IMG/VR virus record: IMGVR_UViG_3300048592_001370
Length of the DNA stretch: 20,000 bases
Origin: an uncultured virus (IMG/VR IMGVR_UViG_3300048592_001370)
Taxonomy: Duplodnaviria > Heunggongvirae > Uroviricota > Caudoviricetes
Direction: 5' to 3' (one strand)
Shown: positions 13,281 to 18,764 of the stretch, in pieces
Layout of the letters: every line of letters begins with the position of its first letter
Numbering within the stretch: position 1 is the first letter of the stretch
Notes under the pieces: generated by a model
The model's input: the letters and a program-made list of their open reading frames with translations, nothing else
What the model was told of the DNA's origin: nothing
Databases searched by the model: none
Translations under genes and position numbers: made by a program

Positions 13281-13302
13281 GATTCCTCCTAAGTTGAAAG
13301 GA

Positions 13303-13672
13303 CCGGCCTTATTTGATAACAAGGAAAGGCCGGCGGAAACCCCGTCGGAGCCGAAGCTCTAAGGATTGCGCCTAGCTACCCTTATCAGGCAGCGAGGCGT
13401 GTCTCCCCGAAATAGCTGTCATCGTTGGCAACTATTGGTTTTGCGCTATTTACGTCAGGCGCCTGACGTGCCGTAACTCCAGGTACTCATTACGCCGTCG
13501 AAGCCATGTCACCCCCAACTGAACAGCCTAACGGCTCTCATAGCAATAGCGCCCACTCGCGGTTACCGCCGAGTTACAACGCTAGGCCGTTCAGGTGGAG
13601 GTGGGCGGAATCGAACCGCCGTCCGACATACCTTTCGCTTTCGTTTTTCGAGCTTTCGCTCACACGACAATT
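13303..13672 (-). ncRNA. ssrA: Circularly permuted (two-piece) tmRNA; tag ANDDSYFGETRLAA
   Basis: Acceptor piece (..GGACGGCGGTTCGATTCCGCCCACCTCCACC, ends 13594) precedes the coding piece (GGGGGTGACATGGCTTCGAC.., starts 13516). Acceptor stem GGGGGUG/CACCUCC has G3-U70. PK1 is ACGTCAG-GCGC-CTGACGT..GCGC. Tag ORF 13429..13385 ends TGA TAA. A 3' hairpin lies at 13303-13333; outer boundaries are approximate. Confidence 0.93.
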
Positions 13673-13674
13673 CT

Positions 13675-13751
13675 TGGTCGGGGTGGTCAGACTCGAACTG
13701 ACGACCCCCTGCTCCCAAAGCAGGTGCGCTACCAGGCTGCGCTACACCCCG
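13675..13751 (-). tRNA. tRNA-Pro(UGG)
   Basis: CGGGGTGTAGCGCAGCCTGGTAGCGCA-CCTGC-TT-TGG-GA-GCAGG-GGGTCGTCAGTTCGAGTCTGACCACCCCGACCA; 77 nt, encoded CCA. Confidence 0.97.
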
Positions 13752-14470: not shown

Positions 14471-15517
14471 TTAATCGTAATCACGCGTGTCTTCTTCTAC
14501 GTCATCCTCGTCCTCGTCATCGACGTCCTCGACGTCCTCGACTTCCTCGTCATCGTCCGCTTCTTCCTCATAGTCCTCGTCTTCGTCCTCGTCTGCGACG
14601 ATGTTAATAAAAGCGTTCCGCGCAGCCGGAGGGAGTTGGCTTTCAAAGACAGCCGAACGTCCGGGGAACGCCGCCTTGAGCGCCTTCATAGCTAAGGCCA
14701 AGATTTCCTTGGTTGGCTTGGCGTTCGAGTTGGCCTTAGCCTGCCTTACGATGACATAGGGCACCATCTCCCCTGTTGCGGGCCGCAGTCTGCTTCGTAC
14801 GCTGCCGCGGTTATCGTGACTGAATTCCCACACTTCAAGGGTGAGCACTGGATTATTGTCCAGCGTCCGCACCGAGTAGATTTCGTATGGTCGTCGACCC
14901 GCTGATCCCTTCGCATGAGTTTGCCAGTACGTCTTGACGCAATTGTTCATGCGCTGACCTTCGAGGATGTAGGCATCCCTCGCGTCGAGCCGAACTAGGC
15001 GATATTGGTCGTTTTCCCACAGCGAGGTAATGTTCTTGAGATCCTCGGACAACACCTTTTCGCGTTGCAGCCGTTTGACCCACGCTTCCGTCTGCTTGCC
15101 CATTTCCGCGACCGTGATGCGCGAAATGTCTTTGTCTGCGAGATCGGCCCGCACATAGTCATACCAGTGCCCGATGCGAGATTCGTACTCCTCCTCGTTT
15201 ATGGAGATGTAGTGAATATCGTCCCCTTCGGCAAACGCTCGCTCGAACCACTCCGGCTGTTCGCTCTTTTTGAGGAAGCGGAACTTGTTTTTCATGCGGT
15301 CCGGTGTGCCGCCTACAGCCACCGCCATAGCGTGTAACAGACTACGCAGGTTGGCAGGCAAACAGAGCAGTGACTTCTCCTCTTTGAGGATGTAGTTTCT
15401 CAGATTTCTGCGAAGCCACTGCTGGAAAGGTTTCGACTTTCCGCGTATTTGGAGATCGAGGAAGGCCTCGATCTCCGCGACGTTAAGGATGTTGCGACCA
15501 TTGTTTTCTTTCTTCAT
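14471..15517 (-). CDS. PcfJ-like domain protein with acidic C-terminal tail
   Basis: LEGQRMNNCVKTY..IYSVR..LTLEV..QAKANSN matches the PcfJ-like EG..M.HCV..Y signature; ~38-residue D/E-rich tail. Confidence 0.75.
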   Translation of the reverse strand: MKKENNGRNILNVAEIEAFLDLQIRGKSKPFQQWLRRNLRNYILKEEKSLLCLPANLRSLLHAMAVAVGGTPDRMKNKFRFLKKSEQPEWFERAFAEGDDIHYISINEEEYESRIGHWYDYVRADLADKDISRITVAEMGKQTEAWVKRLQREKVLSEDLKNITSLWENDQYRLVRLDARDAYILEGQRMNNCVKTYWQTHAKGSAGRRPYEIYSVRTLDNNPVLTLEVWEFSHDNRGSVRSRLRPATGEMVPYVIVRQAKANSNAKPTKEILALAMKALKAAFPGRSAVFESQLPPAARNAFINIVADEDEDEDYEEEADDDEEVEDVEDVDDEDEDDVEEDTRDYD

Positions 15518-15541: not shown

Positions 15542-15781
15542 TTAGAGCAGTTCGCCGTCCCGTAGTTTGGTCAGCAGGGTCTGCGCTTGGGACGGAGTTG
15601 AGAACGCGAGCGTTGCCAGCGCCTGGACCGTTTTGGGAATACGGCGACCGGACTCGTAACGCGAACCACCGCTTTGTGTCACGCCTACCCGTGACCAGAA
15701 AGTCTGCTGGTTGACGCCGAGTTCCTTGCGGGCCTTCTTCACTTCCTCGCCGGTGCTGATGAGCTTGATTTTTGCAGCCAT
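15542..15781 (-). CDS. XRE-family helix-turn-helix regulator
   Basis: RKELGVNQQTFWSRVGVTQSGGSRYESGRRIP, the pattern of the small betaproteobacterial XRE/RsaL-like regulators; AGGAG RBS. Confidence 0.9.
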   Translation of the reverse strand: MAAKIKLISTGEEVKKARKELGVNQQTFWSRVGVTQSGGSRYESGRRIPKTVQALATLAFSTPSQAQTLLTKLRDGELL

Positions 15782-15818
15782 GCTATTCTCCTAAGTTAAG
15801 GGACTACGGGTTTACAAC

Positions 15819-16419
15819 TGGTGGGCCTTGTTGGATTCGAACCAACGACCAAGGAATTCGTACCACTATAGTTTTCACTACCTAGAGGCGTAGCCAGCCA
15901 GTAGTTTCCTACGTGCCTCGTGTCTGTCTAGTTTGTGGTCTGGGCTATGCCTTTACCTTGGGTGAATCGTTGCCTTGACTTGAAAGTACAAGCAACAGTT
16001 TATAGTCATCCACCTTTAGGTATCTGCCGTCTAGTCTCTACACCTTCCTAACCGATAAGCAGAACTCAACTTACACTGAACCGGATTTACGGCATAGTTA
16101 GGCTTGGCTCGGTCGTTAGCATATTTAATGGTTAGGATTTATGATTGCCGGTTTTAAACTTCAACTGGTATATCACCTAGCCAAACAGCCTTCGCCGACT
16201 TTGACAGAATTCACCACAATCTACGGTTGCCAAATTACATGGCAACGGCTAGGCCCTGTCGAGATTGTTTTACCGCCTTTCGGTTGTGCCGTTACGCCGG
16301 CCTACTTAGGTTCGCCTTTCGGTATCCACCTGTTCGGTTTCCGACTACCAGCACATTTTTCGGTGGTGCACAACTTGCGTTAATGAGTTCCCTGCTCTAA
16401 CCAACTGAGCTAAAGGCCC
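15819..16419 (-). tRNA. tRNA with CAU anticodon (probably tRNA-Ile2), exons 16419..16383 and 15858..15819, interrupted by a group I intron
   Basis: Joined exons give GGGCCTTTAGCTCAGTTGGTTAGAGCA-GGGAA-CT-CAT|AA-TTCCT-TGGTCGTTGGTTCGAATCCAACAAGGCCCACCA (77 nt). Confidence 0.93.
15859..16382 (-). ncRNA. Group I self-splicing intron (IC3, Azoarcus tRNA-Ile-like), 524 nt, no homing endonuclease ORF
   Basis: 5' splice site follows U (CAU|), IGS GUG, terminal G at 15859. Core motifs: GUCAAAGUCGGCGAA, CCGAGCCAAGC, GAAGGUGUAGAGACUAGACGGCAGA, AAGGCAUAGCCCAG. Confidence 0.93.
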
Positions 16420-16423
16420 GTGT

Positions 16424-16996
16424 TCATTTCTTCACTATACTGCGGATTTCCTCAAACAATCTTTGATGCTTCTCGGACAAATGCCAAGTCGACATATCCG
16501 TATCGGGAGCGCCTTCCAGCAATCTCTGGATGTCGGCCTTGTCTTGCAACGCCCGCTTGGGATTGTCTGCTCCATACAATTTTAACGCGATCAATCCTTC
16601 ACGCGATGCAATCCGCAGACCCAACGGAGCAACCCAGGCGGTGCGAAAGACCTGCTCCACACAAGTTTGCGGAATATGAACGGAGACAGGTGTTACCGTT
16701 TCTACCTCTACCTGCGTTTCGTTTTCCTCGAAGGCTCCGCGTCTTTTCTGTTTGAAACCCGGTACCTCCTTCGGAATGTCCGCGTTCGACAAGAACAACA
16801 GATCGACGTCCTGAGTGGCTCGCGGGGGCGCATAGAATGACATTGCAAGACCACCGATCAAAACACCCGGCACCTTGTTATGCACTTTGTTCTGAACCCA
16901 GCGAACCAAGGCTAATCCAACTTCAGGGATCAGCGCCGCGTCTTCAATACTGGAAACAGCGGCTCGCGCAAAGCGCATATTCCGGAGAACTTTCAT
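16424..16996 (-). CDS. Pol-beta superfamily nucleotidyltransferase (AbiEii/DUF6036-like)
   Basis: LIGGLAM..Y..PRATQDVDLL (GG..RxTxDxD) and LIALKL...R..QDKADI motifs. Start trimmed to ATG 16996 (AAGGA RBS). Confidence 0.85.
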   Translation of the reverse strand: MKVLRNMRFARAAVSSIEDAALIPEVGLALVRWVQNKVHNKVPGVLIGGLAMSFYAPPRATQDVDLLFLSNADIPKEVPGFKQKRRGAFEENETQVEVETVTPVSVHIPQTCVEQVFRTAWVAPLGLRIASREGLIALKLYGADNPKRALQDKADIQRLLEGAPDTDMSTWHLSEKHQRLFEEIRSIVKK

Positions 16997-16998
16997 GG

Positions 16999-17097
16999 TC
17001 ATTCCTTCTTCGGCTTCGGATGCCACAGAGCATTCGGATGATTGCGGCACCAGACAGTGCCATCCGGCCAAACAACTTCCTCGTAATACTCGGACAT
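16999..17097 (-). CDS. Unannotated 32-aa microprotein MSEYYEEVVWPDGTVWCRNHPNALWHPKPKKE
   Basis: GGAGG RBS 4 nt upstream of the ATG; stop lies 2 nt before the nucleotidyltransferase ATG; below the ORF-track length cutoff. Confidence 0.6.
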   Translation of the reverse strand: MSEYYEEVVWPDGTVWCRNHPNALWHPKPKKE

Positions 17098-17101
17098 ATG
17101 T

Positions 17102-17578
17102 CCTCCGTGTTAAGTAGCGGATGCCGGGCTGAGATCGGTATGCCCGGTACCCTTCCGTCCGATCTACGGAGGTTCTTCTCAAAGTTCTGACCGGTGGAGA
17201 ACCACTTCAACGAGGCCAGCTTGGACTCTTCTCGCGACCCAAGTTACGTCCTGCTGCAACAGACAGCTTTCAGTAATGCGCTTCTACGGACTGGGTGTCT
17301 AATCCAACCCTCCACACAAAACGTCTGTTCCATCGCAACATCTACCGGAATCAAAGCTTCACGTTGAACGAGGCAGCTCCGCGCAACGTATATGTCCGAC
17401 GTTATCTGACACGCCCGACATGGGACAGTACCGAACCAACCGGAGCCAATTCGGCCTTGCCTGCCCACTCGGTTTCGTCTCCTCTAGACTACGATGTACC
17501 CTCGTCTCAACCTACCCAGGGGTTAGCCAGATAGTCTACCACGTGGCCTTGCCGTATCAAGGGCGCTAGAGGCACCCT
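17102..17578 (-). ncRNA. Candidate ~470-nt structured ncRNA with a 3' pseudoknot
   Basis: No convincing CDS. Multiple helices, including H-type pseudoknot AGAUCGG/CCGAUCU + CCGGGC/GCCCGG enclosed by CCUCCGU/ACGGAGG. Confidence 0.55.
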
Positions 17579-17803
17579 TCACTCCTGCGAGTTTTTTCGG
17601 TTCGCGTTCCAAAACATTGCAAAGATCAGATATATGGCCGTTGTGAGAAACACGAACAGTATTGTCCGATCCAGGGCATACATCAGAGCCGCGTACTCTT
17701 CCTTGACGCCTATCATTCCGATCATGCGAGGCAAGCCACCTACACCGCACCACGCAAGAGATAGCAGGAACACTGTCCAGAAGGGTTCGTATCTTAGTTT
17801 CAT
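17579..17803 (-). CDS. Small membrane protein (2 TM)
   Basis: ATGA overlap with the deaminase stop, GGAGGAG RBS, two hydrophobic segments. Confidence 0.7.
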   Translation of the reverse strand: MKLRYEPFWTVFLLSLAWCGVGGLPRMIGMIGVKEEYAALMYALDRTILFVFLTTAIYLIFAMFWNANRKNSQE

Positions 17804-18285
17804 GTTTCTCCTCCGCAGCAATCTTTGCTGGGAGGCAAGTCCTCCAACATGATGATCTGGACACCGGCCTCAGCCAGCATTTCCTTCGAACGCTTGTGGT
17901 TCTCAGCCCACCTGCTGGCCGGGTTCGGAGGCGGAGTAACCACACAGACCATGCCGGTCTGAATAATCGCCCTTGCACAGTCCGTGCAGGGGAAGCGACT
18001 AACCACGATCTTGCAGCCGCGTAAAACTTGGCGAGCTGCCGAGTAGATTGCGTTTCTTTCGGCGTGCTCAAACCAGTAATCCTTCTCGGGCTTTACCCAG
18101 CGCTCCGGCCGTTCATCACTCACGTTTCGCGGGATGCCATTATACCCCGCGAAGAGGAATTCGTTGTCGTGCCCGAGAATTTGCGCCCCTACCTCGTTCG
18201 TCTCGTCCTTGGACAGCGTGTTACCTATAGCAACGGCGATCTCCAGAAACTGACGCGCCTTTTTGCCGCTGATCGGAATACTCAT
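17800..18285 (-). CDS. dCMP deaminase
   Basis: SKD..VGA..GYNG.P..HAERNAI..PCTDCARAIIQTG zinc-deaminase motifs. Confidence 0.92.
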   Translation of the reverse strand: MSIPISGKKARQFLEIAVAIGNTLSKDETNEVGAQILGHDNEFLFAGYNGIPRNVSDERPERWVKPEKDYWFEHAERNAIYSAARQVLRGCKIVVSRFPCTDCARAIIQTGMVCVVTPPPNPASRWAENHKRSKEMLAEAGVQIIMLEDLPPSKDCCGGET

Positions 18286-18764
18286 TCGCCACCTCCCGAG
18301 CTAGACGAGCTACTGTCGCTGCTAGAACTCGACGAGCAATCAGACGAGTCCCAGGAACCGGAGGCACCTCCACCTCCAAACTCGCCACCACGTTCTACCC
18401 GCTCGGGTTCCTCAACCGAGGAACCGCTATGACCGATAGACTCAGCTAACAAAGCGAGGGCTGCCAAGTCGGAGGCCGTAAGTCCGCCATCCTCCTCCAC
18501 GCTCGATACGGAGCGGCCTTCCTTGATAATGCGCGCCGGAGGCGGTGGCGGAGGCGGTGGGGCGGGTCTATGAATTCCCGTGCCTGGACGAATCCGAGGA
18601 ACACGTGGAGGCGACGAGAGGAAGAGCTGTCGCCGCAACCAGTCCTCATGTTCCTTTCTGCGCTTGCGTTCCTTCAACTTGAGGAACAGATAACCCAGGA
18701 TGGCGGCAGAACATCCGGTTACGAGCACCAATAAGAAAATGACAACAGCCGTATCACCCCACAT
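18282..18764 (-). CDS. Single-TM protein with poly-Pro and Gly/Ser-rich tail
   Basis: N-terminal TM, PPPPPPPP, GGEFGGGGASGSW (resembles TPM/YgcG-family tails); GGAGG RBS. Confidence 0.75.
   Translation of the reverse strand: MWGDTAVVIFLLVLVTGCSAAILGYLFLKLKERKRRKEHEDWLRRQLFLSSPPRVPRIRPGTGIHRPAPPPPPPPPARIIKEGRSVSSVEEDGGLTASDLAALALLAESIGHSGSSVEEPERVERGGEFGGGGASGSWDSSDCSSSSSSDSSSSSSGGGE

Follow-up and report, generated by a model that had tools for sequence, protein, structure and literature searches.

We propose that the locus described here encodes a stand-alone, MenT1-like phage enzyme that acts on tRNA and is co-transcribed with tRNA-Ile2(CAU), with the RNA upstream of it being a separate element; we give this reading somewhat better than even credence. 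The locus is found in a 20,000-nucleotide stretch of DNA from an uncultured virus (the window; IMG/VR record IMGVR_UViG_3300048592_001370), whose genes, by our own reading, are all on the minus strand in a tightly packed array. The locus belongs to the translation-RNA island of a phage of huge size; in a protein search, the longest contig listed for the nucleotidyltransferase described below has 207,582 bases. A sequence-only reading had proposed a new system in which a structured RNA gates a 32-residue peptide and an AbiEii-like nucleotidyltransferase (NTase) directly upstream of an intron-containing tRNA. Such a new system is not demonstrated; the locus is a known type of enzyme, in a variant form, in a phage tRNA island, together with one unexplained RNA. 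The features, in transcription order, are as follows.

17098..17578, minus: non-coding gap of 481 nt between an 80-aa ORF (17821-17579) and the 32-aa ORF; no ORF of convincing length
17559..17579, minus: 8-bp G+C-rich hairpin whose first base is the final one of the preceding stop codon; a U tract does not follow (sequence reading)
17196..17566, minus assumed from context: candidate orphan RNA or terminated leader (371-nt metatranscriptome contig)
17100..17175, minus: hairpin of CCUCCGU (17172-17166) with the Shine-Dalgarno (SD) sequence ACGGAGG (17108-17102), enclosing two crossing stems (17165-17124) (fold)
16999..17097, minus: 32-aa ORF (MSEYYEEV...KPKKE) (ORF list)
16424..16996, minus: 190-aa MenT1-like (DUF1814/AbiEii) nucleotidyltransferase (Pfam, profile, model, Foldseek)
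16420..16423, minus: 4-nt spacer, ACAC, that separates tRNA nt 1 from the stop codon of the NTase (sequence reading)
16383..16419, minus: 5' exon of tRNA-Ile2(CAU), nt 1-36, with the anticodon CAU at its end (E. coli tRNA-Ile alignment)
15859..16382, minus: probable group I intron of 524 nt between tRNA nt 36 and 37 (Rfam, intron-less contig)
15819..15858, minus: 3' exon of tRNA-Ile2, with encoded CCA at 15821-15819 (alignment)
15542..15781, minus: 79-aa RsaL-like HTH protein (Pfam HTH_92, E 1.3e-22), the next protein-coding gene past the tRNA

When the sequence was re-read, everything that the sequence-only reading had named was found where it had been placed, that is, the peptide ORF (17097..16999) and the NTase ORF (16996..16424) on the minus strand, the 4-nt gap (ACAC, 16423-16420), the tRNA start at 16419 with its anticodon (CAT, 16385-16383) on the minus strand, and the SD sequence with its upstream complement (CCTCCGT in the DNA).

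By sequence and predicted structure, the NTase is an AbiEii/MenT-type nucleotidyltransferase that retains every catalytic residue, as the sequence-only reading had recognized. It matches Pfam AbiEii (PF08843) with 22.6 bits (E 1.1e-4), that is, 0.1 bit above the cut-off of 22.5, and a profile constructed from 30 NTase sequences has a sole match in the PDB, 8an4 (MenT1; E 4.9e-11). The AlphaFold model (pLDDT 93.4) has strands at residues 45-101 followed by four helices; the predicted fold is bi-lobed, with a β-sheet NTase domain and a C-terminal helical bundle. When this model was searched with Foldseek, ranks 1-4 were all MenT1 chains (probability 1.00, TM 0.48-0.52), with 8an5_A the best match (E 5.4e-5), followed by 8an4. 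In the 30 sequences, T61, K139, D152 and D155 are invariant, and conservation is 90% or more at D63 and D65. The residues T61, D63, D65, K139, D152 and D155 align with T39, D41, D43, K137, D149 and D152, the catalytic residues of MenT1 (HMM alignment and the residues named in section 7 of PMC10435456 and in the available part of PMC11375011). These comparisons establish the family, the fold and the catalytic residues of the protein. An alternative start at 17002 would extend it to 192 aa.

The NTase resembles MenT1 (Rv0078A of MenAT1; PDB 8AN4, 8AN5) in size (190 vs 196 aa), in the T/D/D/K/D/D catalytic residues that go with its best structural and only PDB profile match, and, in the present window, in having a small ORF directly upstream. 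It differs in that the two proteins share ~18% identity in the structural alignment (TM about 0.5); also, MenT1 is encoded in a bacterial two-gene operon, whereas the NTase is found in huge-phage tRNA arrays, and its family, with nucleotidyltransferase activity and toxicity that are putative, is without a MenA1-like or other conserved partner. The likeness to AbiEii of AbiE is the Pfam match to the DUF1814 nucleotidyltransferase superfamily; however, its score just reaches the cut-off, the locus lacks a gene for an AbiEi-type antitoxin, and it belongs to a phage instead of a host defence locus. The PADLOC models gave no match on the locus. Relatives of the NTase were found at 10 loci in IMG/VR, and the highest-ranking cluster in the Atlas consists of Viruses only (100%); tblastn against GenBank phages gave no match.

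The tRNA that follows is tRNA-Ile2(CAU), interrupted in its anticodon loop. Its 5' exon is 89.2% identical over 37/37 nt to genes annotated as tRNA-Ile (in 5424/5426 E. coli genomes), and the joined exons align end to end with E. coli tRNA-Ile(CAT), with neither gap nor overlap at the junction; a contig of the uninterrupted tRNA from run X9 skips exactly 15859-16382 (524 nt). The alignment and the intron-less contig establish the identity of the tRNA and the borders of the insert. The insert is probably a group I intron, with self-splicing that is putative: Rfam Intron_gpI matches 16252-15928 over the full model (1-253) with 31.6 bits (E 1.3e-5), below the gathering score of 50; U16383 precedes the 5' splice site and G15859 is the last intron base. 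No P1 or internal guide pairing could be assigned by eye, the intron holds no ORF of at least 30 aa on the minus strand, and no similar intron was found in GenBank phages at blastn sensitivity. Among the contigs of the sequencing runs, none represented RNA of this tRNA after splicing. In bacteria, self-splicing group I introns occupy the anticodon loops of cyanobacterial tRNA-Leu and tRNA-fMet and of proteobacterial tRNA-Ile(CAU) and tRNA-Arg. The present intron is like these in having its predicted core in the anticodon loop, a U at the exon end and a G at the intron end, and in interrupting Ile2(CAU); it differs in its 524 nt with long segments on either side of the Rfam core, in scoring below the Rfam gathering threshold, and in its location in a phage. 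It is a probable case, from a phage, of a group I intron in tRNA-Ile2.

Relatives of the NTase recur beside tRNAs. A same-strand tRNA is located within 250 nt of the NTase in 10 of 36 dereplicated lineages (present window counted); the other 26 show no adjacent tRNA; several of these 26 are represented by short contigs, and tRNAs split by an intron, e.g., the present one, escape ARAGORN. The tRNA-adjacent lineages are scattered over the NTase tree (of 7 changes, 5 or more are forced); in lineage L015, tRNAs flank the NTase on both sides, and in L013, L015 and L038 the end of a tRNA is only 8-22 nt before the NTase start, so that there is no room for a leader or an upstream partner. Because the relatives recur within phage tRNA arrays, a link between the NTase and tRNA is plausible; the adjacency is, in our judgement, enriched. 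Phage tRNA regions may also just gather accessory genes. The neighbors of the NTase are highly variable between lineages, and no conserved partner is found on either side, nor an upstream partner ORF common to the lineages (36 lineages). None of the 10 flanking window proteins was matched at any homologous NTase locus, and single-protein locus searches of IMG/VR with the NTase, dCMP deaminase and PcfJ-like protein identified no close relatives of the phage. The earlier observation that no HTH antitoxin is directly adjacent is literally correct; nevertheless, the gene for the RsaL-like HTH protein (15781-15542) starts 37 nt past the tRNA, and this protein is absent from every NTase locus examined.

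In the reading that we favor, the NTase would most likely, by homology to MenT1, add nucleotides to the 3' acceptor ends of tRNAs, its presumed substrate. The NTase and the tRNA-Ile2(CAU) that begins 4 nt past its stop codon are probably on one transcript, and the mRNA would acquire its 3' end when RNase P cuts at the 5' end of the tRNA. Before that tRNA can serve, it would have to shed its 524-nt, putatively self-splicing intron. Our leading guess is that the enzyme would disable or re-tune host tRNAs while the phage provides its own. The recurrence of its family in phage tRNA arrays, together with the lack of a conserved partner gene, makes it look like a stand-alone phage enzyme that acts on tRNA and not like a classical toxin-antitoxin pair.

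The gap upstream of the peptide ORF is, by our own reading, the sole large non-coding gap in the window, RNA genes aside. From run X10 (an RNA library from an unrelated metatranscriptome), one free-standing contig aligns over its whole length (1-371) with 17196-17566, with 10 differences (97% identity) and a depth of 19.4; the flanks are absent, that is, the NTase, the peptide ORF and the 80-aa ORF are not covered, and the habitat label of the run differs from that of the runs in which the DNA is best represented. The evidence is one contig from one run, and contigs reveal no strand, ends or level; the runs X1, X4 and X9 show near-identical DNA and generic tRNA pieces, nothing more, and no weight is placed on the parts that they leave uncovered. 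The DNA of a diverged relative could in principle produce the same picture in X10. The segment behaves as a separate RNA, expressed or strongly conserved. It probably represents either an orphan RNA that is expressed or a leader that is terminated, for which we infer the strand and the ends. Several identities for it were considered and rejected. ORF74 (17244-17468) within it is not coding, in our reading, because all four sites of change in X10 (three single bases and one three-base block) alter the protein. Rfam identified no family at gathering score in the 481 nt; we took an s2m match (RF00164, 23.7 bits) as chance, and a two-part s2m-like motif had 1 match in IMG/VR, with flanks that lack similarity. 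RNase P, T-box and tRNA mimic had no support when judged by eye against their motifs and no Rfam match.

A cis-regulatory leader is one explanation for the 481 nt: as one structured 5' leader, it would sense a signal and gate the peptide and the NTase, either through the SD hairpin or through a weak terminator near 17200-17181, and the 371-nt contig would be this leader after premature termination or processing. A leader that terminates is typically present in larger amounts than the gene behind it, and the contig ends at 17196, ~100 nt before the ORF, at a weak 5-bp hairpin followed by UUU. The SD sequence is in a 7-bp closing helix that is kept in both the MFE and centroid structures of 17100-17175 (76 nt; z -2.08, with 10/200 shuffles folding as well), and the overlap of the peptide stop with the alternative NTase start (ATGA, 17002-16999) would couple the translation of the two. 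The perfect 10-nt complementarity of the peptide start region (17090-17099) with 17390-17399, also pointed out in the sequence-only reading, is seen in only 18/2000 shuffles.

However, the pairings that were claimed for this RNA are near chance level. A 7-mer complementary to the SD region occurs within 200 nt upstream in 193/2000 shuffles; the SD helix is present, with z -2.08, and its pairing is at chance level. The 10-nt complement is one among 23 inverted repeats of 9-22 nt in these 2 kb, and it also follows from GGACATATGTCC, a 12-nt palindrome over the peptide start codon; it is perfect, as claimed, and not confirmed to exceed chance. (GGACATATGTCC was also considered as a repeated operator and rejected, because it is unique in the window; its half-site, with at most 1 mismatch, has 8 matches vs 3.15 expected, with at least 8 in 4/200 shuffles.) Both crossing stems of the proposed pseudoknot are present (AGAUCGG 17165-17159 with CCGAUCU 17138-17132, and CCGGGC 17147-17142 with GCCCGG 17129-17124). 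Among 500 shuffles, 9.4% contain one or more pairs of crossing 6+6-bp stems, and 4.4% reach the count observed. The third loop, which connects the 3' arms of the two stems, has 2 nt, too few by general pseudoknot geometry to span 7 bp; in our view, the full pseudoknot is thus sterically doubtful.

The RNA also does not fold better than shuffled sequence (z -0.99 for 496 nt; z +0.21 for the minus and +0.69 for the plus strand of the 371-nt segment); the changes in X10, the one near-identical variant known, would break MFE pairs, with no compensation among those listed. Around the 8-bp hairpin, the fold of 17520-17582 has z -2.42, with 3/200 shuffles as good. No relative of the RNA was detected with blastn at 58 homologous loci or in GenBank phages (where only the tRNA exon matched), the matches in three whole huge-phage records all have E of at least 0.7, and the exact pseudoknot pattern and a 19-mer had 0 matches in IMG/VR; in GTDB genomes the 19-mer had 5 matches (by our own estimate, ~4 are expected by chance), none extending beyond 20 nt. 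The length upstream of the NTase is at most 214 nt in 33/34 other lineages (410 nt in one). Riboswitches and RNA thermometers that sequester an SD sequence provide a parallel, in that the SD pairs with an upstream complementary 7-mer; the present RNA differs in having no conserved aptamer or relatives and a pairing at chance. We conclude that the upstream 481 nt are not a conserved riboswitch for the NTase, and we regard a regulatory leader as unlikely.

The enzyme could instead repair or mature tRNAs, restoring or completing 3' ends on tRNAs of the phage or the host, e.g., after a host defence has damaged acceptor ends, and so aiding translation and not poisoning it. Its location within tRNA arrays favors this, as does the setting: the available part of Al-Shayeb et al. 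2020 (PMC7162821) reports that phages >200 kb carry tRNAs, tmRNA and tRNA-acting enzymes, and names CCA-adding enzymes among their translation genes, with no mention there of a MenT or AbiEii-type enzyme. CCA is not encoded in the L016 arrays and most of those of L029; against this, CCA is already encoded by most tRNAs in the window and, by our own count, in about six other arrays. MenT1, the nearest characterised enzyme, needs an intact CCA: it extends intact CCA ends and is inactive on ends without A76 or CCA (PMC10435456). Also, what the NTase has in common with CCA-adding enzymes of class I or II is the fold alone (Foldseek E >0.2). Repair is, in our estimation, rather improbable.

We assign a comparably low probability to the absence of any functional link, under which the NTase would be an accessory gene that came by accident into a tRNA region, a common site of such insertions; the gap would hold a promoter or decayed sequence, and ordinary read-through or the DNA of a diverged relative would account for the RNA contig. 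The 26/36 lineages without an adjacent tRNA, the variable neighbors, the sigma-70-like site at 17560-17533 and the absence of a structure signal in the fold z-scores are consistent with this. However, the tRNA association extends over at least five well-supported branches, and gaps of only 4-22 nt between NTase and tRNA imply common transcripts; also, the X10 contig is 97% identical, comes from another habitat and lacks the flanks, and the catalytic residues are all conserved.

A toxin-antitoxin pair like MenA1-MenT1, in which the translationally coupled 32-aa peptide would neutralize the NTase for phage exclusion, addiction or the timing of host shut-off, is more doubtful still. The nearest solved relative of the NTase, MenT1, is neutralized by MenA1, a small protein (68 aa) encoded upstream, and the first 32 residues of MenA1 suffice for the inhibitory phosphorylation of T39 (available parts of PMC10435456 and PMC11375011). 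T61, the equivalent of T39, is invariant, and the peptide ORF has both the ATGA overlap and a preceding GGAGG; this motif is 4 nt before the ATG, a spacing below the about 7-9 nt that we read for several other genes in the window, which argues against the pairing. Because small, unrelated ORFs stop 3-10 nt ahead of the NTase in L003, L005, L012 and L047 and MenA antitoxins are diverse (PMC10435456), a peptide antitoxin stays conceivable. However, no relative of the peptide was found at the 58 homologous loci, no partner is conserved on either side of the NTase, the tRNA immediately ahead of the NTase in L013, L015 and L038 excludes an upstream partner there, and, in our view, the Pro/Gly-rich peptide is unlike the N-terminal helix of MenA1. 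An identical peptide sequence is present in the ESM Atlas and gave no usable match; a predicted NTase-peptide complex scored 0.00, which weighs neither for nor against pairing.

RNA and peptide are thus both absent at all 58 homologous loci, a lack of co-occurrence that the sequence-only reading had itself listed among the outcomes against its proposal, and the proposal that RNA, peptide and NTase constitute one co-inherited, RNA-switch-gated system is unsupported; the peptide ORF is specific to its lineage, as is the hairpin at the SD, and a peptide or RNA regulator may be specific to the lineage of this phage. In type III toxin-antitoxin systems (ToxIN-like), the RNA antitoxin consists of tandem repeats and the toxin is an endoribonuclease. 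The present locus is similar in having a non-coding RNA upstream of a toxin-like gene; it differs in that there are no tandem repeats (0 rows from Tandem Repeats Finder in 15700-17700), the enzyme is a nucleotidyltransferase and not an endoribonuclease, and gene and RNA are not conserved together.

Least probable, and in our opinion very unlikely, is that the ~370-nt RNA and the NTase form a joint phage device against host translation, in which the RNA, as an antitoxin or decoy, would hold the NTase in check until needed or, as a leader that senses the state of tRNA, would release it, whereupon the NTase would disable host tRNAs and the intron-bearing tRNA-Ile2 and other tRNAs of the phage would take over decoding. 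If true, this would be an RNA-controlled MenT-type enzyme wielded offensively by a virus, a use that, to our knowledge, is known for neither MenT nor AbiE.

In bacteria, MenT and AbiEii are known as toxins, which extend the ends of tRNAs and thereby stop translation, and AbiE is an anti-phage defence. In a search of the literature outside subscription journals, we found no paper linking DUF1814 enzymes to phage tRNA clusters. The RNA segment, if real, would be one further unclassified phage RNA. The stand-alone MenT1-like enzyme has a wider meaning: the presence in huge phages of a family whose predicted catalytic residues are intact suggests that phages may use the same chemistry as the bacterial toxins, and its role could be in host takeover or in tRNA maintenance; this bears on why large phages carry so many tRNAs.

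The minus strand carries every gene of the 20-kb window, and the packing is tight. The features around the nucleotidyltransferase (NTase) are, from 5′ to 3′:

17821-17579, minus: 80-aa ORF
17578-17098, minus: non-coding gap, 481 nt
17097-16999, minus: 32-aa ORF (peptide)
16996-16424, minus: 190-aa nucleotidyltransferase (NTase)
16423-16420, minus: spacer of 4 nt between NTase and tRNA
16419-15819, minus: intron-interrupted tRNA
15781-15542, minus: RsaL-like HTH gene

The other RNA genes of the window are a permuted tmRNA, a tRNA-Pro and a tRNA-Thr; the two-piece tmRNA (13294-13751, minus; tag ANDDSYFGETRLAA) overlaps the end of tRNA-Pro(TGG) by ~11 nt. Elsewhere on the minus strand, a 160-aa ORF (18282-18764) has a hydrophobic N-terminal stretch, an eight-proline run and long serine runs, and a PcfJ-like protein of 348 aa (14471-15517) has a long acidic tail.

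The AbiEii-like assignment of the NTase, first made by eye, holds: Pfam AbiEii matches with a score at threshold (PHROGs and PADLOC give no match), a profile built from 30 of the 106 relatives found by protein search has a single match in the PDB, MenT1 (8an4; E 4.9e-11), and the best structural matches of a confident model (pLDDT 93.4) are MenT1 chains. The toxicity of MenT1 requires D41, K137 and D152 (PMC10435456); these catalytic positions are common to both proteins, falling in invariant or nearly invariant columns of the family, and the positions of T39, D43 and D149 are likewise kept. The family comprises 169 representatives at E ≤1e-30 and 1955 at E ≤1e-3. Ten contigs of IMG/VR carry a relative, and several of them are 277-500 kb long; tblastn found none in GenBank phages. 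The nearest Atlas cluster is entirely viral, and the longest contig that the protein search gives for this protein has 207,582 bases. Seven members of ~340-370 aa (P0129, P0131, P0147, P0149, P0152, P0166 and P0188) have two matched stretches each, which suggests tandem-duplicated or fused forms.

The intron-containing tRNA(CAU) proposed 4 nt after the NTase is also confirmed, having been missed by ARAGORN and Rfam. Both exons match E. coli genes annotated as tRNA-Ile at 89% and align end to end on that tRNA (anticodon CAT), exon 1 ending at CAT and exon 2 starting at the next base. When contigs from four public sequencing runs were aligned to the window, one from DNA run X9 contained an uninterrupted tRNA that skips exactly the 524 nt. 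The intervening sequence aligns with Rfam's group I intron model over the model's full length, scoring 31.6 bits with E 1.3e-5, which is under the gathering threshold, and has no same-strand ORF of ≥30 aa. Introns of this type occur in tRNA genes of bacteria, tRNA-Ile(CAU) among them. The intron (15859-16382) extends ~130 nt before and ~69 nt after the aligned core, and these segments are presumably peripheral helices; the leading part contains two copies of ACCGAAAGGCG, 39 nt apart.

After dereplication at 85% identity and retention of matches of ≥120 aa, the NTase loci compared fall into 36 lineages. A same-strand tRNA lies ≤250 nt from the NTase in 10 of these (a raw count) and anywhere in the locus in 12, with gaps as short as 8, 11, 18 and 22 nt (loci L038, L026, L013 and L015, respectively); in L015, tRNAs lie on either side of the NTase. 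On a tree of 33 full-length rows (long or fused L032, L039, L042 and L046 and partial matches left out), the tRNA-adjacent rows need seven changes, at least five of them forced by well-supported branches. In our judgement, the NTase appears to be enriched beside tRNAs. Most tRNA arrays near the NTase encode CCA (it is missing in L016 and most of L029), so a simple CCA-adding role is not favored. Like the window, L013 (1-5227, an activated-sludge contig) also holds a two-piece tmRNA, tRNA-Thr and tRNA-Met; there, the NTase lies 18 nt after tRNA-Pro and is followed by the tmRNA (betaproteobacterial type), tRNA-Thr and tRNA-Met, that is, the RNA gene set is identical to that of the window, the order is different, and no flanking proteins are in common.

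The sequence-only reading had joined a structured RNA, the 32-aa peptide and the NTase in one RNA-gated system. In 10 viral NTase loci and 47 metagenomic ones, the peptide has no relative (best E 0.16-0.34, chance level), the RNA has no match at E ≤1, and none of the window's flanking genes was found; by the criterion of co-occurrence set out with the sequence-only reading, this refutes the three-part system as a conserved unit. The sequence upstream of the NTase is ≤214 nt in 33 of 34 other lineage representatives and 410 nt in one. No family of adjacent ORFs, upstream or downstream, is common across lineages except one protein of ~120-155 aa, the sole recurrent neighbor found (six loci: L016, L021, L029, L030, L031 and L036; three upstream, three downstream).

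The sequence features named for the switch are all present; their statistical weight is small. The 7-mer complementary to the peptide's Shine-Dalgarno (SD) sequence exists, but such a 7-mer occurs ≤200 nt upstream of the SD region in 193 of 2000 dinucleotide shuffles. The two crossing stems claimed as a pseudoknot are likewise present; however, a 2-nt loop would have to span a 7-bp helix, which we judge sterically implausible, so the stems are more likely mutually alternative pairings (of 500 shuffles, 9.4% contain a pair of crossing 6-bp stems and 4.4% reach the number observed). The 10-nt complement of the start region (17090-17099 with 17390-17399) is found, but 18 of 2000 shuffles also give one, and it is 1 of 23 inverted repeats in the same 2 kb. 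It arises because a perfect 12-nt palindrome, GGACATATGTCC (17092-17103, once in the window), has its center at the ATG of the peptide ORF; CGGACATAT farther upstream (17390-17398) is thus at once a direct repeat and a complement. The whole leader (496 nt) is no more stable in folding than shuffled sequences (z −0.99), and neither is 17196-17566 (z +0.21 minus strand, +0.69 plus strand); the 76-nt SD hairpin, the sole fold tested to stand out, is mildly unusual (z −2.08). The locus is not a demonstrated new regulatory system.

In the metatranscriptome X10, whose habitat label differs from that of the best DNA holders, one 371-nt contig aligns full length to 17196-17566 with 10 differences at a depth of 19.4 (a contig shows neither the strand nor the real ends of a transcript), and the adjacent genes have zero cover. 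This single contig from one run would be expected of a terminated leader or of a discrete RNA of fair abundance; a less simple possibility is a relative that retains the segment at 97% identity, with flanks diverged beyond 80%. Under either reading, the segment is special. The X10 changes disrupt minimum-free-energy pairs without compensation and so lend support to no structure. ORF74 (17244-17468) is unlikely to be a gene, since all four listed change sites within it alter its protein. Within 17268-17293, the variant has a three-base block (AAA to UUC, minus strand) and three single changes exactly 3 nt apart, a spacing that no open frame explains. Rfam gives the segment no family match except a weak one to the coronavirus-type s2m (RF00164; 17489-17557, minus; 23.7 bits, where the gathering score is 50). 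It keeps both conserved halves of the motif, but has 37 inserted nt in place of the 11-nt apex, and a two-half motif scan of IMG/VR returned one unrelated match and did not refind the site; the match is probably due to chance.

The 32-aa ORF might encode a peptide antitoxin of the NTase, a possibility raised by MenT1, whose antitoxin is a small upstream protein with its first 32 residues sufficient for inhibition (PMC10435456; PMC11375011). The ORF has GGAGG just 4 nt before its ATG (~7-9 nt in several other window genes), and its stop codon and a possible start codon of the NTase share an ATGA; however, it is unconserved at the relatives' loci, and no conserved feature backs this reading.

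The best reading of the locus is a tRNA island of a phage, in which a tRNA-Ile2 with an intron lies beside a stand-alone, predicted MenT1-like tRNA nucleotidyltransferase. It varies on known kinds and leaves one real loose end, the RNA segment, which is unexplained.
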